Assembly: GCA_963668315.1 (NCBI GenBank) | Contig: OY764216.1 | Span: forward strand, 5,440,001-5,504,000 | DNA: 64,000 bases | DNA from: Spirochaetia bacterium | GTDB taxonomy: Bacteria; Spirochaetota; Spirochaetia; DSM-2461 | Direction: 5' to 3' | In this document: piece by piece, positions 4,096 to 36,002 of the stretch | How the letters are laid out: each line of letters begins with the position of its first letter | Position numbering within the stretch: position 1 is the first letter of the stretch | Position numbers and translations under genes: made by a program | The notes under the pieces: generated by a model | Seen by the model: the letters and a program-made list of their open reading frames with translations, nothing else | What the model was told of the DNA's origin: nothing | Database searches by the model: none

Positions 4096-4345
4096 CCCCA
4101 GTCGGCGATTCCTTGACGGAACGGTCATGAGGTACCGACCGTTTCGTCGGGGCATGCCATTGAGCGACATTTGGAGGCGCGGGGGCTCGTGAGATTTCGG
4201 GCCCCCCGCCATTACCGCCGTACGCGACTCTACCAAGGAGTCATAAGAAAGATGCAGGGACTTACGATTGATACTGTCGACAACTGTCCGGACTGGGTTC
4301 GGGAATCATCCCCGGTTGCAGCCTTGGGATGAAGGTTGCCGCAAG

Positions 4346-6411: not shown

Positions 6412-6463
6412 CCCTTTGAAGAACCATCTGGCTATCTCTGGACAACCCAATCGAGGTGAAACG

Positions 6464-12175: not shown

Positions 12176-12216
12176 GCTCTGCTCTGGCATTTATACATTA
12201 CCGGAGGGATGCTACG

Positions 12217-16173: not shown

Positions 16174-16244
16174 GGCTCCTGCCGCGACTATTGCGTTCCA
16201 GACCATTCGCTCACGGAAATCCGATAACAAGAAGGAAGGCCACA

Positions 16245-19200: not shown

Positions 19201-20312
19201 CGCTCGGCTGCAAAGCAGGCCCACTCACTGCGGCCCAAGTTCGGCAGATTCTATTGGGCAACGACGACCGCCCCGGACTCCTCCAAGAGCTGACAAATCG
19301 GAATCAGATTGAGGACGACGGCCTTCCGTCAGAAGAGATAATCAAGCAACTCAACACGCTCTGGACGGTCCTTGTTCCTGACGAAACGCTCCGGGAGAAA
19401 CTGGCTGACGGTGAGGCCCTTCAACGTCTGTTGATTTTGCCGGACGGGATTCTGGCTCGGCTGCCCTTCGAAGCTCTGGTCGTCAACGACGATCCCGTTA
19501 ACCCGGAATACCTGATCGACAACGGGCCGGCGACCATGTATGCTCCCTCGGCCACAGTCTTCTACAACCTCAAGCATCGCAAGCTTGCCTCTTCGGAGGG
19601 CGAGACCCTCACCGTGGGCAACCCGCGATATGGAGGCGACGGCGAACCGGGCGATCGTGGAGACGTTCTCGACGAGTTGAAGACGGCTAGCCGGTTTGCC
19701 CATCTGGGTACGCTTGCCGAACTGCCGTGGACTGGGGATGAAAGCCGTTGGATCAAGGAGTCATGCGACGCCAAGGGCTTGCCGGTTGTCCAACTGACTC
19801 AGGAATCGGCCACCGAGGCCAAAGTCCGCCAAAACGTGGCCGGCCGATCACTCGTCCATCTCGCCAGCCACGGCATGGCCGATGGTTCGCACGGCAACCT
19901 GTTCGGTGCATTGGCACTCACCCCCGTCGATGCCGGAGACACCTCGAACGACGGATTCCTGACCGTAGCCGAGATGTTCGATCTGGACCTGCACGCCTGC
20001 GAGCTGGCGATCCTGAGTGCCTGCGACACGAACATCGGCCCCAATCAGCGTGGGGAAGGCACGTGGTCGATGTGCCGGGGAATGTTGACATCGGGCGCGC
20101 GGCGTGTGGTCACCACCGACTGGCAGGTGGCCGACGAGGCTTCGGCTCACCTGGTGTATGCATTCGTCTATTACCTGCACGATTCCGAATCGCAGGCACG
20201 CGACCACGCCGAATGTCTGCGTAACGCCCGGCTTTCGATTCGGAACCATGACACTCGCCAATGGCGGCACCCGTATTTCTGGGCGCCGTTCGTGTTGACG
20301 GGACCGGAGTAG
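16245..20312 (+). CDS. Exported TPR-CHAT protease 3
   Basis: GTG start after GAAGGAAGG; signal peptide; TPRs; HLASHG and LSACDT. Confidence 0.95.
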   Translation: MLYKYRSRCLASIGMLLLLLCQDRSARGDDLKEWNRLFALCVKQTATGRFDEAERSVFKLKEIAEGPFSDEPACMGHVLSLRGNINLCRGDYATAESFFARSLEIFSSSLGKSHPNVALAHMNLGVTYRKQGKETAAGRSYERALAIQEELIKEDASAESIERSGIIDTLSNLGVLRQLQGRDAEAVRVLERALTYSSECGNETSSAEAGAHSNLGGLLNKLERYSEAIAHFEQALAIRKKIHGQENIDYALTLNNLAAAHFYQEQYDKAEPLYLQALTICDKLPPTPESERITTTWSDKLASICEAQGRFADAESLHRRLLAHYERADKRDNTAVAMSLNNVGYCCYMQAEYDDAEQMYKRALALRERIHGKDHPEVATVVGNLGTLYSAQGRLADAEEFHKRALRIQEDTLPRNDPRIALSLNNLADVYRILAQYRKAEPLYERARSIFERSPGRNSFEYAMALNNLGVLHSEVGNYATAADFHQQALKIREKLQGASHPDVALSSHNLATVYLDEGRDLEAKKLFERALKIYRDAGQGAHPNIAPVLDLLGNVYVHLGQYADAEALLREAFVIRQSALDPGHIQVATSYNNLATIATLSGRYEDACALSEKALAIQEDVLGGDHPEIARTLNAIGGTHFARGSFAEAEPYLTRALSIREKAGSDEQIAESLNNLGTLHGDLGHFEDAIRLHERALSIRRNAGGGASEYVGQSLVNLAIVYRDQKQYAAAEPLIDEAITLFDDFQAKSGWKNTAHLVRSDIRMRQGRPDAALADIRTAMQQANEVRKQMPGVAHQRATAFGQFASAFEKMVEFQTDVEDLPQAFAAIESFRAQSLQDLMHSAGVALLEGVPEDNATRLLRAESDAKAEVAALQKQLDVMRIRSDMDDGEKVQETRRLAQALEEAHGRLVQAWADIKNASPAYRMIVTEDREPVKLEVFQEELSGSGTLALQYMLGQDNGFLLAYGGGIEPVLSKLDVKEAQATTLGCKAGPLTAAQVRQILLGNDDRPGLLQELTNRNQIEDDGLPSEEIIKQLNTLWTVLVPDETLREKLADGEALQRLLILPDGILARLPFEALVVNDDPVNPEYLIDNGPATMYAPSATVFYNLKHRKLASSEGETLTVGNPRYGGDGEPGDRGDVLDELKTASRFAHLGTLAELPWTGDESRWIKESCDAKGLPVVQLTQESATEAKVRQNVAGRSLVHLASHGMADGSHGNLFGALALTPVDAGDTSNDGFLTVAEMFDLDLHACELAILSACDTNIGPNQRGEGTWSMCRGMLTSGARRVVTTDWQVADEASAHLVYAFVYYLHDSESQARDHAECLRNARLSIRNHDTRQWRHPYFWAPFVLTGPE

Positions 20313-20346
20313 TGGTCACAAGACTCATCTCGACTCGGAGAGCACC

Positions 20347-23300
20347 GTGCGACCGATCCTATCGCTCTTTCTCGCTATTTCAGTCACGCTTGTTTCAGGC
20401 TCCCTTGCTTCTGCTCAGTCGCTGAAGTCCTTCTGCGCCGATGCGGAACGTGCAAGGCAGTTCATTTCTTCCGGGCAGTACGCAGAGGCTGACCGGCTTA
20501 CGGCCGAACTCGTTGCCGCCGCACAGAAGCGTTTTGCTGCGGAGGAACGGGCATCGACCGAACTCAACAACATCGGATTGGCGTATTTCCGCCGAGGCCG
20601 TTACGATCGTGCTCGACGCGCATTCATGCCTGCGTTGACGATCTCCGAAAATATCGATGCGAAGAGTCTTGATACGGGGATCATTCTGGACAATCTGGGA
20701 GTGATTGCGAGCAAGCAGGGGCGATACCAGGATGCAGAACGATACGAGCAGAGGGCTTTGGCAATCCGTGAAAAGGCATTGCCGGGAGACAGTCCACTTG
20801 TTGCCTTGTCCCACAATAATCTCGGGACATTGTATCAAAGGCAGAATCGATATTCCGAGGCCGAACAGCATCTCAAGGACGCAATAGATATCTACCGAAA
20901 GAAGACGGACAAGTCATTGGATCTCGCGCGTAGCCTTGACAACCTCGGCACCGTGTACGAGAGGCTCGGGCGATATTCCGAATCTGAAGCCCTGTACAAG
21001 GAGGCACTGAAGATACGCGAAGCTCAGCTCGATCCCATGCATGTCAGTCTCGCCTCCACACTCAATAACCTCGGTGTATTGTACAAGGCAACGGGACGGT
21101 ATACCGAGGCAGAACCGCTTTATGAGCGGGCGATTCGAATCTGGGAGCACCAAGACCACCCCAGTCGCGCCTGGGGTCTGGACAATCTGGCTACGTTGCG
21201 TGACGTGCTCGGTCATTATTCAGAGGCCGAAGAGCCCTGCCGGCGAGCCCTCAACCTGAGATTGAGGACATTTGGGGAAGGCCATCCTGAGGTCGCAACG
21301 AGCTATAACAACTTGGCGTTAATTCTGGATCACCAAGGAAAGCACGCTGAAGCGGAGGACCTCTACAGACGGGCACTGGAGGCGGCAACGGCACAAACCG
21401 GCGATGATCCGGATACGGCGACTCGGCTCAACAACCTCGGCTCCCTCCTGCGAGATCTCGGCAAATTCGACGAAGCGGAGCCTCTGCTGAAACGTGCGGT
21501 GGAGATCCAGGAAAGCAGGGGCAACGGGGAGCCGTCGGCACTCGGATACAAGTTGAGTAACCTCGCGGTGCTCTACGATCTTCTTGGACAACACGCTCAA
21601 GCAGAGAAGCTGCACTTGCGCGCCTTGAATGTCTACGAGAGTGGTTGTCCATCGGGACACCCGGACATTGCGACCGGACTACATTGCCTTGCCTTTCACT
21701 ACTCTGAACAACGCCGGTACGAAAAGGCAGAGCCCCTGTTGCGCAAGGCCATGGAGATATGGGAAGCAAGGGAAATGACGGGGCATCCGGCGTATGCAGC
21801 CTGCCTCAACACGCTGGGAACACTTCTTGATGATCAAGGCCGCAACGCTGAGGCCGAGGAGGTCCTTCTCAAGGCACTGGAGGCGAACGAGAAGGTATTC
21901 GGAGAGAATCACCTCAATGTGGCGATAAATCTTCAGAATCTGGCTGGTGTCTACTGGGACCTGGACCGAAATTCTGATGCGGAACCACTCTTCCGGCGTT
22001 CCCTCAGGATCTTCGGACAAAAACTGGGAACAGATCATCCCACGTACGCGACAGCTCTCACACGGCTTGCCGGCCTGGCCAGATTCGAGGGACGCGCTTC
22101 CGAGGCCGAATCGCTATGCAGTCAAGCGGTAGAGACGGTGCGCAAGACGGGCGTATGTGCCCCACGATTCGCCGTGGAGTGTTTTGTCAACCGGGCACAG
22201 CTCTATTGGGCGCTTGGGCGAGAAGAGGAGGCAATTGACGATTTGGAAGAGGCTATGACGTACGCCGGCCAGGTGCGTGAGCACGCTTCAGGGGGCGATG
22301 TTCATAGGTCGATGACCTTCGCGAGCTATGTCGGGGTCTTTGAGGTAATGCTCGACTGGCAGGCGAAACTCGGCGAGTTGACCGTGGCGTTCCAGACGAT
22401 CGAACGCTGTCGTGCCCAGGGCCTTCAGGATCTTATGCAGTCCAACGGGATGGACCTGCTTGAAGGCGTGCCGGAACAGACCGCCTCCGAATTGCGGGAA
22501 GCGGCACACGTTGCACAGGCCGAAGTAGCCTCGCTGCTCAAACAGATCGAGGTGCTTCATGAACGTACGGACTTGGCGTCGAAAAAGAAAGCCAAGAAGA
22601 CGGAAGATCTCGTCGATCTTCTCGACAACGCCCGCGAATCACTAGTGCAGGCCTGGGCGGATATCAAGAACGCCAGCCCCGCCTACCGGATGGTCGTGAC
22701 GGAGAATCGAGAACCGGTGCCGTTCGAGGCGTTCCAGCAGGAACTTGGGAAGTCCGATACGGTTGCACTGCAATACTTGCTCGGTGAGAAGAACGGTTTC
22801 CTCCTTGCCTACGGCGGCGGAATCGAACCGGCACTGATCACGTTGGAGATCAGTGACACTCAGTCCGAGGTGTTCGGCTGCGATGCCGGCCCGCTAACGG
22901 CTGCTCGCTTTCGGCAGGTTCTTCTGGGCAACAAGGATCGGCCGGGACTTCTCCGCGATTTGACGACCCTCGGGGAGGTGACTGACGAAGGTCTGCCATC
23001 GAAAGAGACCCTCAATGCCTTACGTACTCTGTGGGCTGTTCTCGTGCCCGATGAGACGCTGCGTGAGAAGCTCGTCGACGGGGAGAGCTTCAAACGCCTG
23101 TTGATTCTTCCGGACGGCGTCCTTGCCCGATTGCCCTTCGAAGCCCTGGTCGTGAACGACGATCCGCAAGCTCCGGAGTACCTTCTCGACAACGGGCCGC
23201 CGACCATGTACGCTCCTTCGGCCACCGTGTTTCACAACCTCAAGCAGCGAGAGGTCTCTGCTTCCAAGGGTGAGACGCTGACGGTCGGCAATCCGAGCTA

Positions 23301-23982
23301 CGGTTCGACAGCCCAACCGGGAGATCGCGGAACGGTTCTGGAAGAACTTCAGATTGCCAGTCGCTTCGCCCATCTCGGACGGCTTGCCGACCTGCCTTGG
23401 ACCGGTGATGAGAGCTGCTGGATCAAGGAATCCTGCGAGGACAAGCATCTGCCGGTGGTCCAGTTGACAAAAGAGAAGGCGACCGAGGAGAACGTTCGCA
23501 ATAACGTTCGAGGCCGTTCGCTGGTTCACTTCGCCTGCCATGGTCTGGCGGACAACGAGTATGGGAATCTGTTCGGGGCCCTGGCCTTGGCGCCGGTCGA
23601 TGCGGGCGATCCGTCGAACGACGGCTTCCTGACCGTGGCCGAGATGTTCGATCTGGACCTGCACGCCTGCGAGCTGGCGATCCTGAGCGCCTGCGACACG
23701 AACATTGGCCCCAATCAGCGTGGGGAAGGCACGTGGTCGATGTGCCGGGGGATATTGACGTCGGGCGCCCGGCGTGTGGTCACCACCGACTGGCAGGTGG
23801 CTGACGAGGCTTCGGCTCACCTGGTATATGCATTCGTCTACTACTTGCACGATTCCGAATCGCAGGCACGCGACTACGCCGAATGTCTGCGTAACGCCCG
23901 GCTTTCGATTCGGAACCATGATAATCGGCAATGGCGGCATCCGTATTTCTGGGCGCCGTTTGTGTTGATGGGACCGGAGTAG
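20347..23982 (+). CDS. Exported TPR-CHAT protease 4
   Basis: Signal peptide ending ASA; TPRs; HFACHG and LSACDT. Confidence 0.95.
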   Translation: MRPILSLFLAISVTLVSGSLASAQSLKSFCADAERARQFISSGQYAEADRLTAELVAAAQKRFAAEERASTELNNIGLAYFRRGRYDRARRAFMPALTISENIDAKSLDTGIILDNLGVIASKQGRYQDAERYEQRALAIREKALPGDSPLVALSHNNLGTLYQRQNRYSEAEQHLKDAIDIYRKKTDKSLDLARSLDNLGTVYERLGRYSESEALYKEALKIREAQLDPMHVSLASTLNNLGVLYKATGRYTEAEPLYERAIRIWEHQDHPSRAWGLDNLATLRDVLGHYSEAEEPCRRALNLRLRTFGEGHPEVATSYNNLALILDHQGKHAEAEDLYRRALEAATAQTGDDPDTATRLNNLGSLLRDLGKFDEAEPLLKRAVEIQESRGNGEPSALGYKLSNLAVLYDLLGQHAQAEKLHLRALNVYESGCPSGHPDIATGLHCLAFHYSEQRRYEKAEPLLRKAMEIWEAREMTGHPAYAACLNTLGTLLDDQGRNAEAEEVLLKALEANEKVFGENHLNVAINLQNLAGVYWDLDRNSDAEPLFRRSLRIFGQKLGTDHPTYATALTRLAGLARFEGRASEAESLCSQAVETVRKTGVCAPRFAVECFVNRAQLYWALGREEEAIDDLEEAMTYAGQVREHASGGDVHRSMTFASYVGVFEVMLDWQAKLGELTVAFQTIERCRAQGLQDLMQSNGMDLLEGVPEQTASELREAAHVAQAEVASLLKQIEVLHERTDLASKKKAKKTEDLVDLLDNARESLVQAWADIKNASPAYRMVVTENREPVPFEAFQQELGKSDTVALQYLLGEKNGFLLAYGGGIEPALITLEISDTQSEVFGCDAGPLTAARFRQVLLGNKDRPGLLRDLTTLGEVTDEGLPSKETLNALRTLWAVLVPDETLREKLVDGESFKRLLILPDGVLARLPFEALVVNDDPQAPEYLLDNGPPTMYAPSATVFHNLKQREVSASKGETLTVGNPSYGSTAQPGDRGTVLEELQIASRFAHLGRLADLPWTGDESCWIKESCEDKHLPVVQLTKEKATEENVRNNVRGRSLVHFACHGLADNEYGNLFGALALAPVDAGDPSNDGFLTVAEMFDLDLHACELAILSACDTNIGPNQRGEGTWSMCRGILTSGARRVVTTDWQVADEASAHLVYAFVYYLHDSESQARDYAECLRNARLSIRNHDNRQWRHPYFWAPFVLMGPE
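22645..23982 (+). repeat. Near-identical CHAT-coding repeat, partner of 14836-16173
   Basis: Direct nucleotide comparison. Confidence 0.9.
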
Positions 23983-24104: not shown

Positions 24105-25226
24105 TTGATGCGACCTCGACAAATACAGGGAACCTTCTGGATCGTAATCCTGGGCGTTTTGGCGGGACCGGTCGCGGGCCAGATTGCGGTGGCTCCGCCG
24201 ATGCCCGACCATGCTTCGGTCGGCAAGACGTGGGTGGTTGCGATCGGCGTCGGCAAGTATGAGCACTTGCAGTCATTGGCTTATACGTTGGCTGATGCCA
24301 AGGCATTTGCCGACGCCTTCGAGGAGGTGGGATTGGTCAACCGACGGCAAGTGCGGCGGGTGACCGACGGCGATGCCGCGATTTCGGACGCCAAGGCGCT
24401 CCTCAGGCTGCTCGAAGGGCAAATGGGCAACGCCGGTTCACAGGACACCTTCGTCCTCTTCTACGCCGGTCATGGCTACAGTTCCGAAGACGGAAAGGCC
24501 TTTCTGGCGCCGGCGGGATTCGATTTGGATCGGCCGGCTGAGACGGGGATTTCGATGGAACGCCTCCGTGAGGTATTGGACGCGTGCCCCGCTCGTGTGA
24601 AGTGCGTCATCCTCGACGCGTGTTACAGCGGCGGGTTCAGCACGGACCGGCAGTTCGACGGGCAGGCCGCCGTGGATTTGCTCAAGAGCGCTCGCGGCAC
24701 GGTCGCGATATGCAGCAGCACCGACCGGCAGCCGAGCCTGGAATCGGCAGAACTCGAGCACGGTGTGTTCACGTATTGGCTGGTTCGCGGACTTCGCGGA
24801 GACGCCAATTCGCAGATCGACACGGTCATCGATGCGGCGGAACTGTTTCGCTACGTCAAGGACCGGGTGGCCAAGACGGCGGACGAAGCGGGAGGTCTCG
24901 TGCAGCAGCCGACCTGGGGCCTGGACCGCATGCCCGAGATCCCCACGGTGATCGAATTGCGACGTCCCGACCGGCCGAGTGTGCTGGTGCCGATGAAGGC
25001 CGCGCCGCTTCCTCCGGATCCGAAGGTACTCTCCGTTTTCCTGGACAGCATCGAACATTTCCCGCACGCCAATGCCCGAAATGCGATCGGCATCTCGAAA
25101 TGGGTGCTGGCGAACGCTCCTCCCGGCTCCAGTCTCGCAAGGCGAGCCCAAGCGCATATCGACAAGCTCGACAAGATGATCCTGGAAGGCACGCTGCGTC
25201 TGCCGCCGCCGGGAGAGGAGGAATAG
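24105..25226 (+). CDS. Exported caspase-like (C14) protease with short helical C-terminal domain
   Basis: Signal-like N-terminus; FYAGHG, ILDACYSG, HGVFTYWL. Confidence 0.9.
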   Translation: MMRPRQIQGTFWIVILGVLAGPVAGQIAVAPPMPDHASVGKTWVVAIGVGKYEHLQSLAYTLADAKAFADAFEEVGLVNRRQVRRVTDGDAAISDAKALLRLLEGQMGNAGSQDTFVLFYAGHGYSSEDGKAFLAPAGFDLDRPAETGISMERLREVLDACPARVKCVILDACYSGGFSTDRQFDGQAAVDLLKSARGTVAICSSTDRQPSLESAELEHGVFTYWLVRGLRGDANSQIDTVIDAAELFRYVKDRVAKTADEAGGLVQQPTWGLDRMPEIPTVIELRRPDRPSVLVPMKAAPLPPDPKVLSVFLDSIEHFPHANARNAIGISKWVLANAPPGSSLARRAQAHIDKLDKMILEGTLRLPPPGEEE

Positions 25227-25325
25227 AGGCGTTTTTCCCACGCGTTCGACTTTTTGGGATGCCTCCGACGCGTGCCGGGACGGGACGCCCCCCCCGATGG
25301 CGTGAAACGGGGACTGAAGATTCTC

Positions 25326-25353
25326 GCGCAATCCAGGCGGATGGTAGGTGTAT
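25326..25353 (+). promoter_or_regulatory. Putative ECF promoter, copy 3
   Basis: GCGCAA-N16-GTGTAT, 50 nt upstream of ATG 25404. Confidence 0.65.
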
Positions 25354-25403
25354 TGCTGACAGTATTGGAATGGCTTTTTTTTCCCGAATATGGAGAAATC
25401 ACG

Positions 25404-25865
25404 ATGAGAGACAGATGGTTGTTTGTGGCTGCCGGACTCCTTTTGGTCGCTTGCCTGGGATGTTCGTCCGAACCGCCGGCGGACTCGAAGACGGGGCAGA
25501 AGCCCGACCCCCCTGCCCAGGAGCAAGCAGTTCCCTCCGCGCCTGGTGACGAGCAAGGCCAGGTCGACCTGAAGCAGGCTCCCGTGGCTGTGCCCAGCAA
25601 GACGGGCCAGGAGCAGTCGGAGGTTCCTCCCGCACCAGGTGACGGACAAGAACAGGTTAGTCAGAAACAGGCTCCCGTGGCTGCGTCTGCCAAGGCAGGT
25701 TCGGATCAGCTGAAGATCCCTGCTGCACCTGGTGACGGGCAAGGTCAGGTTAGTCAGAAACAGGCTCCCGTGGCTGCGCCCGGCAAGTCCGCCCCGGAAA
25801 AATCAGAAGCTCAGCCCGCGCCGGGCGACCAGTCGGGGGCAGCGAACGAGAAGCAGACGCAGTAA
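25404..25865 (+). CDS. Lipoprotein with 31-aa Gln/Lys/Pro-rich repeats
   Basis: GGAG RBS; lipobox-like CLG-C; PGD repeats starting at 25542, 25635, 25728, 25821 (93-bp period). Confidence 0.8.
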   Translation: MRDRWLFVAAGLLLVACLGCSSEPPADSKTGQKPDPPAQEQAVPSAPGDEQGQVDLKQAPVAVPSKTGQEQSEVPPAPGDGQEQVSQKQAPVAASAKAGSDQLKIPAAPGDGQGQVSQKQAPVAAPGKSAPEKSEAQPAPGDQSGAANEKQTQ

Positions 25866-25971
25866 AGCCCGTTGCAGAAACTTGACAAATCGGCCAGGGA
25901 CGTCCACCGATGCAGTCAACTTTCCAGCCTCTGCTAGACGCAAAGACCAATAGCAACTGGAGGAAAAGACC

Positions 25972-26784
25972 ATGAAAGAAAGAAAGACAGGCCGGCTGAT
26001 GCCACTCGCGGTGGTTCTTCTGGGACTCACCGCCATGGTAACCGTCGGCGGAGAGCAACCCGACAAGCCGCTGGACAAGCTTGGGCCGGCGTGGCAGGTG
26101 GGTGATTCGTGGAAAGTGCGAGCCGTGACGATCCAATCACAAGCGGCCGACAAGAGTTCCGAGCAGCAACAGCAGGCGAAGAAACCTGTTGACTGGCAGT
26201 TCACCGTCACCGGCACGGAGAAAATCAAGAATCGCGACTGTTACCGGGTTTCGGTCACTTGCCTGACGAAGGGGCCGAACCAACCGGTCACGACTCTGTG
26301 GTTCGACGTGGAGAACCGGACGTTGACGCGAGTGGAAGCGAAGATCCTGATCAAGGGCAAATGGCGAGTCTTCACCGAGACCTACGTTTCCCAGGATGGG
26401 AAACCTTGCCCGGTCCTCGGTCCGATTCCGGCGCTTCCCTTGGACTTCCCCGTGTTCACCGAGGAAGGCGGGACAAAGAACCTCGCGTCTCAGACCTACG
26501 AGGCCATCTACGGGGACAAGGGCGTGAAGTCCATCGACGACGTCGGTTTCGCCTTCTCGGTTGATCAGAGCTTCTCTCCGGCAAAGGCCGACCACGTGAA
26601 GTCGTTGGCGCCGACCAGTGAAGGCGAGGGAGTTGTGGAAGTGGAAATCCGTGGTGCACGTCGCCGCGTGTCTCAACTCTGGCAACCCGGCGCACCTTGG
26701 CCCATCTATAGCAACAACGGCATGACGGAAGCTCGGCTCGTGGAAGTCAAGCGTGCCGGCAACGCCGAGGAGGAGGTGCAGTGA
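25972..26784 (+). CDS. Exported beta-rich protein of unknown function
   Basis: GGAGG RBS, signal peptide, stop overlaps the next start. Confidence 0.85.
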   Translation: MKERKTGRLMPLAVVLLGLTAMVTVGGEQPDKPLDKLGPAWQVGDSWKVRAVTIQSQAADKSSEQQQQAKKPVDWQFTVTGTEKIKNRDCYRVSVTCLTKGPNQPVTTLWFDVENRTLTRVEAKILIKGKWRVFTETYVSQDGKPCPVLGPIPALPLDFPVFTEEGGTKNLASQTYEAIYGDKGVKSIDDVGFAFSVDQSFSPAKADHVKSLAPTSEGEGVVEVEIRGARRRVSQLWQPGAPWPIYSNNGMTEARLVEVKRAGNAEEEVQ

Positions 26785-28817
26785 TGATACGCTTCACGAA
26801 ACACAATCGCCTGCCGATTGCGGCAGTTCTGCTTTCCCTGTCCGCCTGTCTTGCGGCCGTCTCTCCGAGTTGCGCCGAAGTGGAAGAGGCACGTACGGAC
26901 ACCGATCCGTGGTCCGGCTACTGGTGGCCGATCTCTCGGGGCGAAATGCTCGTTCCGCTCGGCAAATACGACGCCCTGATCGGCGCCCGTGCAGCCGCAT
27001 GGGAGCGGGCCAACAATCCTCCCGGGGCGAACGTTCCCAAGTGGTTCGGCTATTGTCACGCCTGGGCCGCCTCGTCCATCATGGAACCCGAACCGGCCGC
27101 GGCGATCCGCGTTCAGAACGTGGGACTCGGTGTGGGCGATCAGAAGGGACTGCTGGCGGCATGCCATGCCAACGATGTGGCCAATTCCTTCGGTGATCGT
27201 TTTGGCGACGGGCAAGGCAGCGAAGATCCTCACGATCTGCCTCCCGACGAGTTCTGGATGTTGCTCAAACGGCACATTCGCGAACAGGGCGTTCCCTTGA
27301 TTGCCGATATCGAAGCCGGTGACGAAGTGTGGAACTACCCGATCTTTGCGTATCGCGTCGAATACGCTCCGGCGGGTGGGACCGACCGATACCAGGGGAC
27401 GATTTCCATCTGGATGGCAGACGATGCTGTGCCCATGGACTACGTCGGGGTCAAACGGCTGTTCAAGAAGTACCTTTTCGAGGTTTCCATGCGTAACGGC
27501 AGCGTTGTCATGGGAACGGGAAAATGGCTTGGCACCAGCCGCGACAACCATCCCGACTTCGCTTGGTTTCCCTACGTCGTTCGTCCTGAGAATCCCCAAG
27601 TCGATTACGGCAAGGTGACGAAGATCCTGGGAACGCGGCCGGCCGGCGGCACCACTCCCCCGGATTCCGACACGCCAGCTTCCGCCAATACTCCGGATTC
27701 GACTCCAACGGGCACGCCTGCAGGTACGCCCAGTGGTACGCCCAGTGGTACACCCAGTGGTACACCCAGTGGTACACCCAGTGGTACACCCAGCGGTACA
27801 CCCAGCGGTACACCCAGTGGTACACCCAGTGGTACACCCAGCGGTACACCCAGTGGTACACCCAGTGGTACACCCAGTGGTACACCCAGCGGTACACCCA
27901 GCGGTGCACCCAGCGGTACACCCAGCGGTACACCCAGCGGTACACCCAGTGGTACGCCCAGTGGTACGCCCAGTGGTACGCCCAGCGGTACGCCCAGTGG
28001 TACGCCCAGCGGTACACCCAGTGGTACACCCAGTGGTACACCCAGTGGTACACCCACGCCCAGCGGCACCCCCGGCGGAACTCCGGGAGCTGCACCGAGC
28101 GGCGAACAACCTTCCCGGCCCCCGAGCGGTGTTGTCGTCCAGGCTCGTCCCGAGCCGTTGCTGCTGGATCCGATGGATCTGGTTTCGCTGATCGCCACGC
28201 GAACGTCGGACTTCGCATTGGATATCACGGTCGACCGTTTTGACGGCGGAAAGTACCGGGAAGGCGACCTGGTGTCGATTTCCGGCAAGTCAGCGAGAAG
28301 CGGTTATCTGTACCTGTTGGCCGTCGACACGGAAGGCGTTCCCTCGCTGCTCTACCCGCAGCCCGGCGACGACAACCGTATTGAAGGCGGCGTGGAGTTC
28401 GAGGTTCCGGCGCGGAAGTCCAAGTACCAGTTTCGGCTGTTTCCGCCCCTGGGCGACTACCGGATCAAGGGAATCGTTTGCGAGAAGCCGCTGGAATTCT
28501 CCGGTCTTGTGACGGGTTCCCAACAGCAGGTCGCCTCGTCACCGCAGGCGGCCCAGTCGTCGCAGACCTCCGACGGCAAGGAGGCAGAGACGTCGGACGT
28601 GGCGATTGACCAGCAGAAGTTTCGTTGGAACCCGACGCAACGCGCGCAAGTGAAACAGTTGCTCACGGAGTACAAGAGCAAGGGCAACCTGTCGCAGGAA
28701 CAGGTCGATCATGTCGACCCGCACAACGTTCTCGGTGAGTTTGCCCAGGATGAAGTGGCTTTTTACGTTGGCAAACGCGGGAAGACGCCGCTCCAATCCG
28801 GGAAGGTCCAGCGCTGA
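26781..28817 (+). CDS. Exported GP42/TGase-elicitor-like transglutaminase domain + (GTPS)n linker + DUF4384-like domain
   Basis: PWSGYWWP, WFGYCHAWA, GDQKGLL and EVWNYPI resemble Phytophthora GP42-family motifs; C-terminal GYLYLL...LLYP domain. Confidence 0.75.
   Translation: MMIRFTKHNRLPIAAVLLSLSACLAAVSPSCAEVEEARTDTDPWSGYWWPISRGEMLVPLGKYDALIGARAAAWERANNPPGANVPKWFGYCHAWAASSIMEPEPAAAIRVQNVGLGVGDQKGLLAACHANDVANSFGDRFGDGQGSEDPHDLPPDEFWMLLKRHIREQGVPLIADIEAGDEVWNYPIFAYRVEYAPAGGTDRYQGTISIWMADDAVPMDYVGVKRLFKKYLFEVSMRNGSVVMGTGKWLGTSRDNHPDFAWFPYVVRPENPQVDYGKVTKILGTRPAGGTTPPDSDTPASANTPDSTPTGTPAGTPSGTPSGTPSGTPSGTPSGTPSGTPSGTPSGTPSGTPSGTPSGTPSGTPSGTPSGTPSGAPSGTPSGTPSGTPSGTPSGTPSGTPSGTPSGTPSGTPSGTPSGTPSGTPTPSGTPGGTPGAAPSGEQPSRPPSGVVVQARPEPLLLDPMDLVSLIATRTSDFALDITVDRFDGGKYREGDLVSISGKSARSGYLYLLAVDTEGVPSLLYPQPGDDNRIEGGVEFEVPARKSKYQFRLFPPLGDYRIKGIVCEKPLEFSGLVTGSQQQVASSPQAAQSSQTSDGKEAETSDVAIDQQKFRWNPTQRAQVKQLLTEYKSKGNLSQEQVDHVDPHNVLGEFAQDEVAFYVGKRGKTPLQSGKVQR
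27723..28055 (+). repeat. 12-bp tandem repeat GGTAC(A/G)CCCAG(T/C), about 27.7 units, encoding (GTPS)n
   Basis: Seen directly. Confidence 0.98.
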
Positions 28818-28869: not shown

Positions 28870-30345
28870 ATGATGAGAAGAACCGCCCTGTTTACGCTTG
28901 GAGTCGCGCTGCTGGGATGCTGCCTCGCAGTCGCCGAGGGGGCCGAGAAGCGGCGGCAAGGCCAGGCCACCGCCCGCGGCATTGCCGTTGAGGGAATTCA
29001 GAACTCGACCCCCCAGTTCTCCGTTCGCGTGAGCGTGGATCGGAAGGACCGCACCTACCGCGCAGGCGAACTGGTCGTGGTAACGGTGGAGTCGAGCCGG
29101 GCCGGGTATCTGTATCTGCTGTACTGTGATGCGGAAGAGAACGTTTACGCGGTGTTTCCGAACCAGTACCAGAAGTCGAACCGGATCGAGGCCAACCAGA
29201 AGATCGTGGTCCCGGCGGCCGGCTCGAACTTCCGGTTTCGCATCACCAATCCTTTCGGCAGCGAGATTCTGAAGGCCATCGTGACCGACGAGCCGGTCAA
29301 GGCCGCTGGACTGCCCGATCTTACCAAGAGCGATGCCACCCAGTTGGACGCCGACACACTTCGCGCAGCATTCAAGGGAATGACGGTCGAGGGGGTAGAG
29401 ACGCCTTCATCCCAGGACGAGACGCCTTCGTCCCAGGACGAGACGGACGCCGACGAGACGGACGCCGACGAGACCTGCGTCTGGGCAGAGCACTCCATTG
29501 AACTTCGCACGCTGCCAGCCAACGCCGAACGCGAGATCCACAAGCCTCGCCGTTTCGCCGTGGTGATCGGGATCAGCGATTACTTAAGCCCCGGAATTCG
29601 TGATCTCACGGTCTGCCACGAGGACGCGAAGGTGATGGGGGCCCTGTTGATGGAGAAGTGCGGCGTTGCCGAAGAGGACTGCATTATGCTTCTCAACGAA
29701 GAAGCGACGATGGAGAATGTCCGGCGGGTCTTCTGTGAGGCGTTGCCGAAGCACACGCGGGAAGGCGACGTGATCTTCATCTTCTGGTCGGGTCACGGCG
29801 GCCGCTGTGCCGACGAGGGCGGCGACGAAGCCGATGGCTACGACGAGTATCTGCCTTTGTACGACAGCAAGCGGTTCGAGATGGACACCATGCTCATGGA
29901 CGACACCTTCGGACGCTGGGTCCAGGATCTCGACGGGCGCAAGATCGTCGTCATTCTCGATGCCTGCCACAGCGGAGGCCAGACGAACAAGGCCAAGTCG
30001 CTCTCCAAAGCGATTGGTGACGACGAAAGCTCGGACTGGATGCCGTTCGACTTCGTGGGCAACGAGCTCTCCCGGGTCAAGGACATCGGCCAAGAGGACG
30101 CCGCGATCGTCGCCTCCTCCGTGTCGGCGGAAGTCTCGCACGAGCGGCTCGAGGGCGACCTCAGCGTGTTGACCTACTTCCTCGTGGAGGCGATCAACAA
30201 CGCCACCTCGCCGATAACACTCGACAAGCTGGTCGAGAAGGTCAAGCCCAAGGTCGACGCCTACGTCAAATCGCGGTTTCCCGGCGCCAAACAGTCGGTG
30301 TTCTACCAGACCGACTTGACAGAGCCGCTGATGGTGAATCCGTAG
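28870..30345 (+). CDS. Exported DUF4384-like + caspase-like (C14) protein; paralog of 6464-8059
   Basis: AGGAG RBS; signal peptide; FWSGHG, ILDACHSGG. Confidence 0.9.
   Translation: MMRRTALFTLGVALLGCCLAVAEGAEKRRQGQATARGIAVEGIQNSTPQFSVRVSVDRKDRTYRAGELVVVTVESSRAGYLYLLYCDAEENVYAVFPNQYQKSNRIEANQKIVVPAAGSNFRFRITNPFGSEILKAIVTDEPVKAAGLPDLTKSDATQLDADTLRAAFKGMTVEGVETPSSQDETPSSQDETDADETDADETCVWAEHSIELRTLPANAEREIHKPRRFAVVIGISDYLSPGIRDLTVCHEDAKVMGALLMEKCGVAEEDCIMLLNEEATMENVRRVFCEALPKHTREGDVIFIFWSGHGGRCADEGGDEADGYDEYLPLYDSKRFEMDTMLMDDTFGRWVQDLDGRKIVVILDACHSGGQTNKAKSLSKAIGDDESSDWMPFDFVGNELSRVKDIGQEDAAIVASSVSAEVSHERLEGDLSVLTYFLVEAINNATSPITLDKLVEKVKPKVDAYVKSRFPGAKQSVFYQTDLTEPLMVNP
29398..29475 (+). repeat. 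In-frame microduplications (21 bp x2, 15 bp x2) encoding ETPSSQDETPSSQDETDADETDADET
   Basis: Seen directly. Confidence 0.9.
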
Positions 30346-30411: not shown

Positions 30412-33400
30412 ATGTGCTGTGGAGCGGCAAGACACCTGTTGAACATGTTGAGTGCCATGGTTGCGAGCCTTGTCCAATGTCTGTTGCTGCTGCAAGTGGC
30501 CCTGTGGTGTGCGTGCGTGAGCGGCGCTGAGGCCGATCCGCCGAGCCGGTTCAGCGATGAGCTCGCAAAGGCATCGCAGTTTCTCGCACAAGGTAATCGT
30601 ATCGGGGCATTCGAGATTGCCGATGGTCTGCTAACGCGGGCCAAGTATGTTCCATCCAGAAGAACCGATCTCCCGATCGCAATGCGAGATCTTGCCAACC
30701 GGCTTATGGATTACGGATACTACAGGGAAGCGGAGCCACTGTATCGGGCTGTTCTCGAGTTTTCTGAACGAATCGCCGGTCCGGATTCCGAGGCTGTGGC
30801 AACGAGCGCCAACAACTTGGGGCTTTGCTGTCTTCAGCAAGAGCGATATTCGGATGCCGAAGCACTTCTTAAGCGCTCGCTGCAGATCAGCGAACGTCGT
30901 CTCGGACCAACTCATCGACTGACCGCCGTGCGCTGTGACAATCTGGCAGTGCTGCACCAGGCTCTGGGCCGGTTCAACGAAGCGGAAATGCTTCAGCTGC
31001 GTGCTCTTCGCATCCTGGCGTCTCTACCGAATGCGTCAAAGTGCGACGAAGCCAACGTACTTGGAAACCTTGCAAGCGTACAACAGGACAAGGGATCTGC
31101 GATTGTCGCTGAGCGTGCCTATCAGCACGCGTTGGAGGTATTTGCGCATGCGTTCGGTGAGGACGCTCCGGAGACCGCTCACTGCCTTATGAATCTGAGC
31201 GTACTGTACGAAGAGAACGATCGATACGCAGAGGCGGAGAGCGCCTGCCAAAACGCCAGGAGGGTCCTTCTCCGCACCTTCCCGGCGGATCATCCGCGGA
31301 TCGCGTCGTGCAATAACAGCCTGGGAGCGATATACTGGAAGCAAGGACGCTATCGGGAAGCAGAAGCGAACCTCAAAGCGGCTCTTAACGCTCGTCAGAA
31401 GTGTTTTGGTCCGGGCCATTCGGAAACCGCGGTCACGGCCTCGAACCTCAGTGTGGTCTACTTGGATCAAGGCAGAATCACGGAAGCGGCCAATCTGCTC
31501 GAGGAGACGGTAGAAGTGCTGGAATCCGAGGACGGACCGGTGCATCCGCTCCTCGCTGGAGTTGTGTTGAATCTGGCAACTTGCCGGGTCGCCAAAGGGG
31601 ATAGAGCGGCAGCGGAGGGGCTGTATCGCCGCGCCCTGGAGATTCGTGAGAAGTCCCTTCCGGACGGTTCTCTGTCAACAATCAGCAGCCTGGAAGCCCT
31701 TGCGGGGTTCTATCTCGATGGCAGCCGGATTGAGCAGGCCGAACCGCTGATCGAACGCGCAGTTGCCCTCATTGACCGTCATGAAGCGGCTCCACCACGA
31801 TTGGTCAAGCAAGTGTACATGTCCAGGGCTGATTTGAAGTGGAAAACCAATCGTCGCGAGGACGCCGTCAGTGATTTGGAGGTGGCCATGCAACAGGGCG
31901 ATGCACTGCGCACTCATGCCTCCGGCGTCGAGACGGATCGGGCAAGGGCATTCTCTCAACATGTAGGCGTTTATGAGCGAATGGTGGCATACCAAACACA
32001 GTTGAGAGATGCCGGGAAGGCATTCGTAGCCATGGAGTCTTGTCGCGCGCAGGGATTGCAGGATTTGATGCGATCAAGCAATATTGACTTGCTCCAAAAC
32101 GTACCGGAGCCAACCGCGACCGCCCTGCGTGAGGCGGAGAGTCGAGCCCAAGCGGAATTGGCCGCATGGGAGAAGCAGTTTGAAGTTTTACGCACGCGAG
32201 CCGACATGAATGACGACCACAAGGTCGCCGAGGCCAAGCGACTCGAAGAAGAACTCGGTACCGCCCGGCAACGGCTTGTCCAGGCCTGGGCCAATATCAA
32301 GAATGCCAGCCCTGCCTATCGGCTCGTCGTTTCCGAAGATCGAGAACCGGTGCGGCTGGCAACGCTTCGGAAAGAACTGGACTCGTCAGATACGGTGGCG
32401 CTGCAATACATGCTCGGAAAGGAGAACGGATATCTGCTCGCCTATGGAGGGGGCAGAGAGCCGACCTTGACGGCCCTCCACGTCAGTCCGGCTCAGGCCG
32501 AGACGCTCGGATCCGAGTCCGGTCCTCTGACCTCGGCGCGGGCCCAGCAGATCTTGTTGGGCAGCAAGAATCGGCACGGGCTGCTCCAGGGGCTGACTGA
32601 TCTTCGGGCGATAAGCGTCGACGGCCTGCCGGCAAAGAGCACACTCGAACAACTTCGGACGTTCTGGTCCGTTCTGGTGCCCGACGAGTCGCTCCGCGAG
32701 CACCTCCTCGACGGCAAGAGTTTCAAGCGATTGCTCATCCTGCCCGACGGCGCATTGGCCCGACTGCCCTTCGAGGCCTTGCTCGTCGGTGACGATCCTG
32801 CAGATCCGGAGTACTTGCTCGATCGTGGCCCGGCAACCGTGTACGCTCCCTCCGCCACGGTCTTCCACAACCTCAAGCATCGTCGGAACGAAGCTTCGAG
32901 CGGGACAACGCTTACGGTTGGCAACCCAGACTACGGGGCCCGTGGAGAATCCGAGGATCGAGGCGGTGTTTTGGACGGGGTGAAGGTGGCAAGCCGCTTT
33001 GCCAGTCTGGGCAAGCTTTCCGATCTGCCCTGGACGGGCGACGAGAGCCGATGGATCAAGGAGACGTGTGAGGCCAAGGGCCTGCCCGTCCTTCAATTGA
33101 CGAAAGAGGCTGCCACCGAGGCCAATGTTCGCGAGAGCGTTGGCGGCCGCTCCATGGTGCACTTTGCCTGTCACGGACTGGCAGACGATTCCTATGGGAA
33201 CCTGTTCGGGGCGCTCGCGCTCACGCCGGTCGATGCGGGCGACCCGTCGGACGACGGGTTCCTGACGGTGGCGGAGATGTTCAACCTGAATTTGAAAGGT
33301 TGCGAACTGGCGATTCTCAGTGCGTGCGACACCAATATCGGGCCGAATCAGCGGGGCGAGGGCACATGGTCGATGTGCCGCGGGATGCTCACGTCGGGAG

Positions 33401-33618
33401 CCCGGCGGGTGATCACGACGGATTGGCAGGTGGCCGACGAGGCTTCGGCGCACCTGGTTTATGCCCTGGTGTACTATCTCCACGAATCCGAGGCCGGTCA
33501 GTGGGATTACGCCACGTCGTTGCGCGATGCGCGGCTTTCGATTCGGCAGCATGAAGAGAATGCCCATTGGCATCATCCCTATTTCTGGGCCCCGTTCGTT
33601 TTGATGGGGCCGGAGTAA
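30412..33618 (+). CDS. Exported TPR-CHAT protease 5
   Basis: Hydrophobic signal ending AEA (start may be 30445); TPRs; HFACHG and LSACDT. Confidence 0.95.
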   Translation: MCCGAARHLLNMLSAMVASLVQCLLLLQVALWCACVSGAEADPPSRFSDELAKASQFLAQGNRIGAFEIADGLLTRAKYVPSRRTDLPIAMRDLANRLMDYGYYREAEPLYRAVLEFSERIAGPDSEAVATSANNLGLCCLQQERYSDAEALLKRSLQISERRLGPTHRLTAVRCDNLAVLHQALGRFNEAEMLQLRALRILASLPNASKCDEANVLGNLASVQQDKGSAIVAERAYQHALEVFAHAFGEDAPETAHCLMNLSVLYEENDRYAEAESACQNARRVLLRTFPADHPRIASCNNSLGAIYWKQGRYREAEANLKAALNARQKCFGPGHSETAVTASNLSVVYLDQGRITEAANLLEETVEVLESEDGPVHPLLAGVVLNLATCRVAKGDRAAAEGLYRRALEIREKSLPDGSLSTISSLEALAGFYLDGSRIEQAEPLIERAVALIDRHEAAPPRLVKQVYMSRADLKWKTNRREDAVSDLEVAMQQGDALRTHASGVETDRARAFSQHVGVYERMVAYQTQLRDAGKAFVAMESCRAQGLQDLMRSSNIDLLQNVPEPTATALREAESRAQAELAAWEKQFEVLRTRADMNDDHKVAEAKRLEEELGTARQRLVQAWANIKNASPAYRLVVSEDREPVRLATLRKELDSSDTVALQYMLGKENGYLLAYGGGREPTLTALHVSPAQAETLGSESGPLTSARAQQILLGSKNRHGLLQGLTDLRAISVDGLPAKSTLEQLRTFWSVLVPDESLREHLLDGKSFKRLLILPDGALARLPFEALLVGDDPADPEYLLDRGPATVYAPSATVFHNLKHRRNEASSGTTLTVGNPDYGARGESEDRGGVLDGVKVASRFASLGKLSDLPWTGDESRWIKETCEAKGLPVLQLTKEAATEANVRESVGGRSMVHFACHGLADDSYGNLFGALALTPVDAGDPSDDGFLTVAEMFNLNLKGCELAILSACDTNIGPNQRGEGTWSMCRGMLTSGARRVITTDWQVADEASAHLVYALVYYLHESEAGQWDYATSLRDARLSIRQHEENAHWHHPYFWAPFVLMGPE

Positions 33619-33728: not shown

Positions 33729-33747
33729 CGATTCTGCGTGCTCGCGG

Positions 33748-33775
33748 GCGCAATCTCGACTGCGTTCGAGTGTAT
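33748..33775 (+). promoter_or_regulatory. Putative ECF promoter, copy 4
   Basis: GCGCAA-N16-GTGTAT, about 90 nt upstream of ATG 33864. Confidence 0.65.
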
Positions 33776-33863
33776 GAATCGTGGGCTCCGATCAAGAGCT
33801 CGCCACCCCCACCAGGGGAGGGTGATAGATTTGCGGCACTCATTACGACAAGGACCTCCCACC

Positions 33864-36002
33864 ATGCGACGAGCATTTCTCACGTCACTTATGAGCGTTA
33901 TGGTCTTCATCTCGCACCTCTTGGCCGCCCAAGGAGCCGGCAAGGCCCTCATCATCGGCATCGAACAATACGAAAAGGCGCCGCGACTGGATTTCGTCAG
34001 AAACGACGTCAAGAATCTGGCCGAAGCCCTCTCGAACCGCTGCCTCTACGACGTCACCATGGTGATCGATTCGGCCGTCGACTCCCGGTTGGATTCCATC
34101 GGCCCCACCACCCATCGCGACGCGATCATGCGCCGCATCGAGGATTGGCTCGCCGGAATCCAACCAGAAGACAACGCGATCCTCTATTTCAGCGGGCACG
34201 GGTTCTTGGACGCGGACGGAAAACTGTACCTCGCCGTAATCAACTGTGACCCCCGAAACCCGTCTCCCGGGGGAATTCCCGTGGAGTGGCTCCGTGAACA
34301 CTTGAAGCAATGCCGGGCTGCCCGGAAGGTTCTCCTGCTCGATGCCTGCCATTCCGGCAACGCGAGAAGCAACGCCGTCCAGTCGGTTTCGGCCAAGGCT
34401 ATCGCCGTCGAATTCGCCGGCGTGGAGGGCATTACGACGCTTGCGAGCTGCCAGGGTGACGAAAACAGTTATCTCTGGTCGCAGAAGGAGCACTCCCTGT
34501 TCACGTACTGGCTTGCCCAGGGACTCCTGGGCCATGCCGATGTGGGCTGCGACGGGGAGATCACCTTCGACGAACTCGCCGATTTCGTGTCGAACAACGT
34601 GTCGCTCGTCGCCGACATGGAATTGGGCAAGAAGCAAACTCCTGTTGTTGTCGGCGACAGGAATCCCAACGGCGCCCTCACACTGCAGGTCAAGCCCGTG
34701 GAGCTTTCGCTGCTGATCTCTGACATGGCCGACCAGATCGATACACAGCTTCGGCGTGAGGAGTTCCCCGCCGTGGGAATTGTGCCTTCCTTCACCTGCG
34801 GTGAGACGGGGCAGAGACTGGACCCCCAGTTCGGAATGCTCCCGAGCTATGTGGCCGCCGAACTCCGCCGCTTGCTTTCCAGCCGAGGCCGTCATGAGTA
34901 TCGAATCATCAGTGAGAATGCAATGCGAGAGACGTTGCAGGAGATCGGGGCCGGACTGTCCGACATTGGGGCCAGCAAGACGAGAAACCTCCGGGCCGCG
35001 CGTTCGTCCGAAGAGATTCCGATTCCTTCCCTGGTGACCGGCAGGATCCGCCGTGGCCACGGCCCGATCGTTCGCGTTTCGTGCAATCTTGTCGACGCGA
35101 AGAACATGTACGAAATCGGCTCGGCCGGCGGCACTGCCTACCTGAACGAATCCGAACTCGCCATGGCCCCCGACAGCGTGTCGCACGTTGACTCGGGCGA
35201 GAAGCAGCGCCCAACCGTGGCGCCTGCACCGGGGCCCAAGAACCGGGTCCGACCCCGCCCGCAAACATCCACCGGAAGCGGCGGAGCGGTCGCTCCTGCC
35301 ATGCCTCCCGGCGTCGTTGAGGCCCACCAGAAGCACAAGCAGAAGGCCAAGCTGCCCCATCCGTTGAAGGATCCGAACTTCCCCTACCGCATTGCGATCT
35401 ACGTCAAGGTCGGACCAAACAGGTACCTCCCACGCGAGCTGCATTTCGAGGGAAACCAGTGCTTCGTGACGCTTGATCGGGGCGAGGTCTACGCGATCTG
35501 GATTGAAAACCGCACGGATCACGGCGTCTTTCTGCGGTTGATGGTCGACGGACTGAATACCCTTGCACAAAGCGTTGGGGTCGATGAATCCGGGATCGAA
35601 GTGAAACCGAGTGAAGAAAAAGTCGTCGCTCCTCGCGTCAGCCTTGAGAACGCCCAGGCCTGGCATGTCGACCCGGATAAGATCAACGCGGTAGTCGGCT
35701 TCCACAGCAACGAGGAGGATACGGCGTATGAATTCCAGGTTGTTGACCTGGAGGAATCGGCCGCTGCAAGTCAGGGCTACACCGAGAACATCGGGCTCAT
35801 CACGGCAGCATTCTACAAAGAAAAAGCGAAGACCCGAGGCAGGGGGGGCCCTTCGGTGCAAGCACGTGATCCAGACGGCGGTACAAAGGTCGGCGAGAAG
35901 GTGATTCAGGTCGTTGAGAAATACGAAGGGCCCTACGTTCCTGGCGACCTGCTTACCGTGCTTCACATTCGCTATGTTTATTCCAGTGACAAGTCGGAAT
36001 AG
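33864..36002 (+). CDS. Exported caspase-like protease + CsgG/FlgO/TolB-N-like domain + Pro-rich linker + beta-sandwich domain
   Basis: Signal peptide; YFSGHG, LLDACHSG; middle domain ending SLVTGRI...VSCNLVD; C-terminal GEVYAIWIEN...VDGLN...IGLITAAFY. Confidence 0.85.
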   Translation: MRRAFLTSLMSVMVFISHLLAAQGAGKALIIGIEQYEKAPRLDFVRNDVKNLAEALSNRCLYDVTMVIDSAVDSRLDSIGPTTHRDAIMRRIEDWLAGIQPEDNAILYFSGHGFLDADGKLYLAVINCDPRNPSPGGIPVEWLREHLKQCRAARKVLLLDACHSGNARSNAVQSVSAKAIAVEFAGVEGITTLASCQGDENSYLWSQKEHSLFTYWLAQGLLGHADVGCDGEITFDELADFVSNNVSLVADMELGKKQTPVVVGDRNPNGALTLQVKPVELSLLISDMADQIDTQLRREEFPAVGIVPSFTCGETGQRLDPQFGMLPSYVAAELRRLLSSRGRHEYRIISENAMRETLQEIGAGLSDIGASKTRNLRAARSSEEIPIPSLVTGRIRRGHGPIVRVSCNLVDAKNMYEIGSAGGTAYLNESELAMAPDSVSHVDSGEKQRPTVAPAPGPKNRVRPRPQTSTGSGGAVAPAMPPGVVEAHQKHKQKAKLPHPLKDPNFPYRIAIYVKVGPNRYLPRELHFEGNQCFVTLDRGEVYAIWIENRTDHGVFLRLMVDGLNTLAQSVGVDESGIEVKPSEEKVVAPRVSLENAQAWHVDPDKINAVVGFHSNEEDTAYEFQVVDLEESAAASQGYTENIGLITAAFYKEKAKTRGRGGPSVQARDPDGGTKVGEKVIQVVEKYEGPYVPGDLLTVLHIRYVYSSDKSE

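Follow-up and report, generated by a model that had tools for sequence, protein, structure and literature searches.

A GP42-fold enzyme, its LolA-like partner and a neighbouring caspase: a candidate protease-gated cross-linking module

Organization of the locus

The stretch of DNA analysed here (the window) comprises 64,000 nucleotides of contig OY764216.1 (positions 5,440,001 to 5,504,000 of the forward strand) in assembly GCA_963668315.1, which is assigned to a Spirochaetia bacterium. Its plus strand carries a three-gene unit: a partner gene (25972..26784) coding for a predicted signal peptide and LolA-like open β-barrel, the gene of a GP42-fold enzyme (26781..28817), and a caspase gene with a DUF4384 domain (28870..30345). 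The start of the enzyme gene, GTG 26781 or ATG 26784, overlapped the stop of the partner gene.

The enzyme, 678 residues long, consisted of a signal peptide, a GP42-like catalytic domain of 253 residues (26877..27635), a Pro/Ser/Gly/Thr linker and a DUF4384 domain (28254..28490, residues 492-570, Pfam E 3.4e-12) with a Gln-rich C-terminal part. The linker held a (PSGT)n spacer (27723..28056), encoded by a 12-bp tandem array of 27.8 copies as assembled and much shorter in the homologues. The only PADLOC match of the enzyme lay in this low-complexity linker ('REase'); it was rejected, together with circumsporozoite matches, as an artefact of the PSGT repeat. Neither the enzyme nor the partner was matched by a model in NCBIfam. 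For DUF4384 as a putative docking module no backing was obtained: its profile found no match in the PDB, and an Atlas search with this domain returned mostly DUF4384 clusters.

GP42 fold and active site of the enzyme

An earlier note on this DNA, made from the sequence alone, had proposed a transglutaminase of the oomycete GP42 type. The four motifs that it had listed (PWSGYWWP, WFGYCHAWA, GDQKGLL and VWNYP) all lay inside the enzyme reading frame on the plus strand, and the GP42 assignment held. Pfam TGase_elicitor (PF16683) matched with E 9.9e-20 and 71.1 bits, against a curated cut-off of 25. The isolated 253-residue domain had a single match among PDB sequences, GP42 itself (3TW5, E 3.5e-13; profile E 1.8e-21). 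The AlphaFold model of the domain had a predicted local distance difference test score (pLDDT) of 95.5, and the Foldseek comparison suggested in the note placed 3TW5 at the top (E 8.6e-16, template modelling score 0.80), the second-best match having E 0.036. VIA-align superimposed 238 residues of the model on 3TW5 with Z 23.3 and a root mean square deviation (rmsd) of 2.1 Å.

The term 'oomycete-type' is valid for the fold only, because the nearest named relatives were from Planctomycetota; an oomycete origin of the gene found no support and was rejected.

Residues of the enzyme are numbered below within the domain, and conservation was counted in a close group of 174 aligned rows and a distant group of 64. 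In GP42, the catalytic His immediately follows the Cys and acts together with either a strand-2 Asn or an Asp from a helix outside the core (accessible part of PMC10318531). Cys60 (27054-27056) and His61 (27057-27059) aligned with the mutant Ser-His of 3TW5, and Asn153 (27333-27335) aligned with the strand-2 Asn. All three were kept in the close homologues (Cys in 169/169, His in 164 of about 169 and Asn in 173/174), so the adjacent Cys-His pair of the earlier note stood. Its downstream Asp could not be confirmed at the aligned position. The helix Asp of GP42, which we take to be Asp328 and catalytically important, aligned with Ala98 in both alignments. Two residues on, Asp100 was kept in 170 of the 174 close rows and may substitute for the helix Asp. 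The enzyme is very likely to be catalytically active, although its sequence cannot decide between transamidation and hydrolysis.

The lack of an Asp at the aligned position favours a rival explanation, in which the enzyme is a hydrolase, either a cysteine peptidase akin to Mac-1/IdeS or a Gln deamidase, held by a cognate inhibitor. It would be one more protease of an exported cascade, with no cross-linking. The structures ranking after 3TW5 in VIA-align also fit this rival: they were papain-like proteases with Z of at most 7.2, IdeS at 6.8 and staphopain at 6.2. On the other hand, the one member of the fold to have been characterised is a transglutaminase, according to the accessible parts of PMC4915311 and PMC10318531, and it was by far the better match.

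A close homologue at L013:3660-5455 had Cys-Gln in place of Cys-His. Its partner also lacked the Gln loop described below, a possible case of joint drift.

The LolA-like partner

The earlier note had overlooked the near-obligate upstream partner, as well as the Gln/Lys-rich candidate substrates treated below. The partner model was an open β-barrel (pLDDT 81). It could be superimposed on LolA (Z 8.6, rmsd 3.4 Å, 139 residues aligned) and on vitellogenin (Z 10.8, rmsd 4.5 Å, 180 aligned), with values close to those of unrelated barrels. The best Foldseek match had E 0.006, and a Pfam match to DUF3108 was below the cut-off. PDB sequences gave no match (best E 1.6) and PADLOC models none. An Atlas search returned clusters without names and also a single CT021 cluster at 0.91-0.92, the latter as a lead only. 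Common descent of the partner with the enzyme family was considered and dropped (hhalign probability 4.7%). The likeness to LolA is a lead at the level of the modelled fold only.

This likeness raised the question of a lipid or lipoprotein acyl-transferase/deacylase pair, with the partner as carrier and the caspase cluster merely co-regulating it. In its favour are the resemblance of the partner to barrels that carry lipids, such as LolA and lipovitellin (Z 8-10.8), the adjoining lipoprotein-like gene and the persistence of the pair in distant lineages without DUF4384. The Z values are middling, however, and common to unrelated barrels, and the predicted interface consists of protein loops at the active site. 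We regard this rival as highly improbable.

The association of the two genes was well conserved. The first-round set contained 13 close loci and a second copy (L057), one of them uninformative, and the partner was adjacent or fused in 11 of the 13 informative loci. A partner-profile search of 401 genomes gave matches in 17, of which 11 were strong; the six weak ones (E about 1e-4 to 1e-3) were kept out of the locus counts, and ten new strong genomes formed a held-out set. The enzyme followed the partner in all ten, bringing the combined figure to 21 of 23 informative close loci. Fusions of partner and enzyme made up 19/120 among the homologues listed and 26/254 overall. Partner-like genes also flanked many distant enzymes that had PPC, SH3 or EF-hand domains in place of DUF4384, and the enzyme-partner pair therefore has a wider distribution than the caspase link.

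Predicted complex of enzyme and partner

Modelling of the enzyme domain with the partner gave an ipSAE of 0.86 (0.85-0.86 in three runs), compared with 0.09 for the best control. Among solved pairs, 116 of 157 reached the ipSAE mark, as did 2 of 215 mismatched ones, counts that are only rough for the alignments used here. The runs shared at least 88% of contacts, with partner pLDDT of at least 82. Recall of a solved complex is unlikely, since the partner is without a match among PDB sequences.

The enzyme contributed residues 56-61 (including Cys60 and His61), 98-109 and 151-153 (including Asn153) to the predicted interface, which thus coincided with the active site. On the partner side were residues 53 and 55-60, K186 and the strand 191-196, which paired with enzyme residues 208-212 in the model. 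Residues 55-57 form the conserved Gln55-Ser-Gln57 loop (26134-26142). Gln57 was present in 42 of 50 close rows and in 8/10 held-out partners, and was rarer in distant ones (8 rows). On this model, the partner very probably binds over the active site, with the Gln loop in the interface. It is likely to be the regulated component.

Two rivals can draw on the same interface. A partner covering the active site is what a hydrolase with its inhibitor would show, and staphostatin, which inhibits staphopain, is a model for such a pair. The Gln loop inside the interface favours another explanation, in which the transglutaminase is constitutive and the partner is its substrate. Gln55 and Gln57 would be the acyl donors, and the Lys motifs of the partner would be amine acceptors or docking tags. 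The enzyme would then need no proteolytic activation to staple the operon's own proteins into a covalent scaffold at the surface.

The downstream caspase

The DUF4384-caspase at 28870..30345 had an intact His-Cys dyad and a signal-peptide-like start. It was a conserved downstream neighbour, found after the enzyme in all eight first-round loci whose DNA extended far enough (in one of them partial, in another split and in a third after a 1.7-kb gap) and in 9/9 such held-out loci, 17/17 combined. Fusions of enzyme, DUF4384 and caspase were found in P0155 and P0169. The caspase link drawn in the earlier note was borne out, and proved stronger than the single sequence could reveal, by the conserved gene order, by these fusions and by a shared basic motif.

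The note had further stated that the enzyme shares DUF4384 with two neighbouring caspases. The sharing was confirmed, at 39% and 33% identity to the two caspase DUF4384s, and only the caspase at 28870-30345 proved to be a neighbour; the paralogue (6416..8059, +) lies 20 kb upstream. A Pfam scan found no DUF4384 in the caspases at 24105, 33738 and 36036.

A Lys motif as a putative cut site

When orthocaspases are activated, the cuts fall in the loop that follows the catalytic Cys. Of 17 caspase loops, 13 had a K-[SAGNDHT]-[LIMV] motif at most 20 residues after this Cys, a raw count without a shuffle control; in the DUF4384-caspase of the window it was at K376 (29995). Orthocaspases cleave after Arg or Lys and activate themselves (accessible part of PMC7475262).

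The same motif was present in the partner at K169 (26476), K186 (26527) and K210 (26599). In the alignment, these positions carried it in 44, 48 and 44 of 50 rows, respectively. Twelve close partners contained 47 copies against 11.5 expected, and 17 distant partners contained 3 against 7.7 expected. In the ten held-out partners, which had 30-62% identity to their best earlier match, 31 copies were counted; 1000 shuffles gave a mean of 7.9 and a maximum of 17.

A third place was the linker of the partner-enzyme fusions. Here 18 of 24 linkers had the motif directly in front of the enzyme, 16 of them at one offset (background 40/736 windows, shuffled mean 1.3). Many of these fusions are close kin, and two of the 26 were left out for want of the anchor motif.

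At two motif sites in the DUF4384-caspases, Lys and Arg interchanged, which fits the P1 residue of a protease rather than an amine acceptor. Together, these sequence patterns tip the balance slightly toward K/R-[SAGN]-[LIVM] being a caspase cut site.

The substrate rival gains from the partner motifs being nearly pure Lys (at position 186, Lys in 48 rows and Arg in one). It does not account for the Arg at equivalent sites of the DUF4384-caspases, nor for the position of the motif, which closely follows the catalytic Cys in the caspases and directly precedes the enzyme domain in the fusions. We consider it unlikely.

In the caspase at 28870-30345 and its homologues, the DUF4384 domain had a [KR]-[AG]-[IVM]-x-V-E motif on either side. 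Cleavage at these motifs, if it occurs, would leave ends that could serve as docking strands.

Candidate substrates

Gln/Lys repeats are typical of transglutaminase substrates. Upstream of the partner, a gene at 25404..25865 (+) codes for a lipoprotein-like repeat protein with SQKQ units. Its Gln content was 13.7%, as compared with a median of 3.7% in 108 open reading frames (ORFs) of the DNA around the window (the 195-kb tail described below), which makes it a candidate cross-linking substrate. A lipoprotein-like ORF resembling it was present at locus L009 (BLAST E 1e-5, composition correction switched off), where another protein had 22% Gln and 15% Lys, and loci L006 and L083 had QKQ-repeat ORFs directly upstream of the partner. 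Altogether, secreted Gln/Lys-repeat proteins occurred at 4 of 25 close loci; none were found in 98 kb of distant loci. The tails of the enzymes themselves were Gln-rich, 22% vs 7%, in 40/120 among the homologues listed, a figure inflated by the anchor motif.

The hydrolase rival offers no explanation for the Gln loop, for the high Gln content of the enzyme tails or for the neighbours with Gln/Lys repeats. Peptidase-type accessory domains on distant homologues speak for it. On balance we hold it to be somewhat unlikely.

Spread of the GP42-fold family

According to the accessible part of a 2016 review (PMC4915311), GP42 homologues were confined to oomycetes and Vibrio. In our searches, 1669 representatives at 50% identity matched the family, which also occurred in 21/401 genomes from the phylum of genome G031. 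The family thus reaches far beyond oomycetes and Vibrio.

All DUF4384-bearing enzymes formed a single branch of the tree (100/100), in which 34 of the 49 intended rows were included, 15 having been left out by a motif-based cut.

Distant matches (P0213, P0217, P0224, P0235, P0264 and others) placed the GP42 fold on secreted proteins with PPC, P-domain, MAM, PKD, CARDB, EF-hand or HHH domains, and some matches were apparently archaeal. A uniform distant group of about 820-850 residues had a C-terminal half without a family assignment.

Origin of the DNA

The last 195 kb of the contig (G000:C1), the whole window included, had a GC content of about 0.60 vs 0.52 elsewhere and a distinct tetranucleotide profile. 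Independent contigs from sequencing runs X1, X2 and X4, which come from one study with at most two samples and are possibly the source of the assembly, broke exactly at G000:C1:5,428,913/5,428,914 (L021:7913/7914), upstream of the window. Both sides of the break ran on into other sequence in these contigs, and the depths across it were 60 vs 4, 183 vs 17 and about 2 vs 75. Because the contigs break there and continue elsewhere, with very different depths and a jump in composition, the assembly is mis-joined at 5,428,913/914, and the 195-kb tail comes from another, planctomycete-like organism. In its remaining part, the contig seems spirochaete-like.

That the host of G000 acquired this DNA horizontally was rejected because of the contig breaks, the depth differences, the composition jump and the lack of PF16683 in relatives of G000 (0/30). 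Window positions 24100-27650 were covered by overlapping contigs with no differences in X1, X2 and X4. The mis-join bears on every finding made in windows from this tail.

A proposed mechanism

We interpreted the unit as encoding a latent complex of a transglutaminase and its cap, which would be opened by an exported caspase specific for Lys/Arg and would then cross-link Gln/Lys-rich proteins. From the sequence patterns and models, we put the probability of this reading at about 0.4.

The scheme would start from the GP42 fold with its Cys-His and Asn, as seen in sequence and model, and from the unit of partner, enzyme/DUF4384 and DUF4384/caspase. All parts are predicted to be exported, judging from a hydrophobic N-terminal stretch in 14/14 window proteins checked (by hydropathy only). 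The partner would cover the active site, where its binding is strongly predicted, and would keep the enzyme latent. The neighbouring caspase would then cut the partner at its Lys motifs, a step for which the odds are a little better than even. The reaction catalysed would probably be Gln-Lys cross-linking and not hydrolysis. In the last and weakest step, the cut would activate the enzyme, and the product would seal or stiffen the envelope or matrix.

Beside the Ala aligned with the GP42 Asp and the raw caspase-loop count, the following points weigh against this reading. The unfused forms of the enzyme have no propeptide of their own, which also favours the partner as substrate; L009 and L011, among the 13 informative first-round loci, lacked the partner; and the residue that contacts Cys60 was absent from the listed interface pairs. 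The motif was defined after inspection of the data, with only the ten-partner set held out, and could equally be a ligand of DUF4384 or TPR domains. At 21 of 25 close loci, no Gln/Lys-repeat neighbour was found in the DNA examined. In the 64 distant homologues the residue after Cys was variable (His in 27, Asn in 17, Asp in 11), which suggests that the chemistry may vary within the family; the His of the HPDF motif was retained in 60 of them. The PPC, P-domain, MAM, CARDB and PKD appendages of the distant relatives are common on secreted peptidases. As judged from the single branch of DUF4384-bearing enzymes, the caspase/DUF4384 link arose once, so the contrast in motif number between close and distant partners amounts to one evolutionary event. 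Most of the distant loci had flanks of 1.5 kb only, by which their 'caspase-free' status is weakly supported.

A wider and quite speculative extension, which we think unlikely to hold as a whole, is extracytoplasmic coagulation in planctomycetes. A sigma/anti-sigma pair of the extracytoplasmic function (ECF) type would induce exported caspases, primed by TPR-CHAT sensors where these are present. One Lys code would be cut in the caspases, the fusion linkers and the LolA-like cap. The freed GP42 transglutaminase would polymerise Gln/Lys-repeat lipoproteins into a covalent plug where the envelope is damaged or attacked.

Relation to known systems

The enzyme shares with Phytophthora sojae GP42 (3TW5, PF16683) the fold, the Cys-His pair, the strand-2 Asn, the W-N-x-P stretch of Pep-13, the HPDF motif and secretion (predicted here). 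It differs in being about 90 residues shorter, in having no Asp at the aligned position, and in having DUF4384, a dedicated partner and a caspase neighbour.

The clustering of CHAT, caspase and sigma factor genes is also found in the SAVED-CHAT/PCaspase/PCi/PCc-sigma system (accessible part of bioRxiv 2023.06.23.546230) and in Csx29-Csx30-RpoE (that of bioRxiv 2022.08.17.504292); according to the same two sources, one group of Csx30 C-terminal domains is DUF4384. In contrast, the proteases of the window had signal-peptide-like starts, their putative output is a GP42-fold enzyme, and the Pfam scan of the window found no CRISPR or SAVED component.

The protease-activated effectors named MBL, alpha/beta-hydrolase, Pepco as well as EACC1 (bioRxiv 2025.11.14.688446) are likewise latent beside a caspase-like protease and released by site-specific cuts, which are putative here. 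As far as the accessible text goes, they are antiviral death effectors and the word transglutaminase does not occur; in the present unit, inhibition is predicted to come from a LolA-like protein, either separate or fused. Transglutaminase is not mentioned in the accessible part of a survey of prokaryotic caspase operons (PMC3501461), and that of PMC8195603 names only other transglutaminase-like folds. The literature searched, with most subscription papers outside its scope, contained no description of this module or of the GP42-fold/LolA-like pair.

Factor XIII with thrombin and the pro-transglutaminase of Streptomyces are protease-gated transglutaminases with an inhibitory or carrier part. 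Their transglutaminase families and proteases are unrelated to those considered here, and the comparison is an analogy only.

The module bears on two open questions, the roles of exported bacterial caspases and of bacterial GP42-type enzymes, and a single operon encodes the protease, the sites where it is predicted to cut, the putative inhibitor, the enzyme and the candidates for its substrates. If the proposed mechanism is true, it would be a bacterial counterpart of thrombin/factor XIII, in which a protease triggers cross-linking, built from unrelated parts, and the caspase output would be constructive rather than lethal. Should the enzyme prove to be a hydrolase, its pairing with the LolA-like partner is still a widespread two-gene module.

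Other genes of the island

Further proteases surround the unit, all on the plus strand. Caspase-type genes were found at 24105..25226 (dyad intact, signal-peptide-like start), at 33738..36002 (a second conserved type, frequently in the same cluster in relatives) and at 36036..37493 (dyad intact). Four of the window caspases scored above the Pfam Peptidase_C14 cut-off and the fifth was recognised through NCBIfam and tblastn. Four tandem TPR-CHAT protease genes (8135..23982), with intact dyads and signal-peptide-like starts, are accessory and went undetected in most related loci. Another lay at 30412..33618 and a divergent one at 37586..42259. The dyads were intact in 5/5 caspases and in all six TPR-CHAT proteases; PADLOC gave generic matches for the caspases and TPR proteins. 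TPR-CHAT proteases as an obligatory part of the module were rejected, CHAT being found in 3/13 first-round and 0/10 held-out loci, many of them on short contigs.

The five TPR-CHAT genes at 8135-33618 had CHAT domains that were 75-78% identical and divergent TPR arrays. This suggested a recent expansion of sensors on a common protease.

An ECF sigma factor (4268-5254) and a membrane TPR protein resembling an anti-sigma factor (about 5251-6411) are encoded at 4268..6411 (+). Homologues recurred near the module in three first-round loci and in 5/10 held-out loci.

Just upstream of the window, L021:8773-19380 (minus strand) formed a divergent arm of the same island, with WD40 proteins and three more caspase-type genes, two of which had the Lys motif after the catalytic Cys. 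The start of this arm within the window, 341-1342 (minus), is a coiled-coil-like exported ORF without a family match; L013:1484-2572 is perhaps similar (unaligned comparison). At the other end of the island, the WD40 genes at 42290-45283 were apparently broken across frames, and they were followed by a radical SAM gene at 46109-47269.

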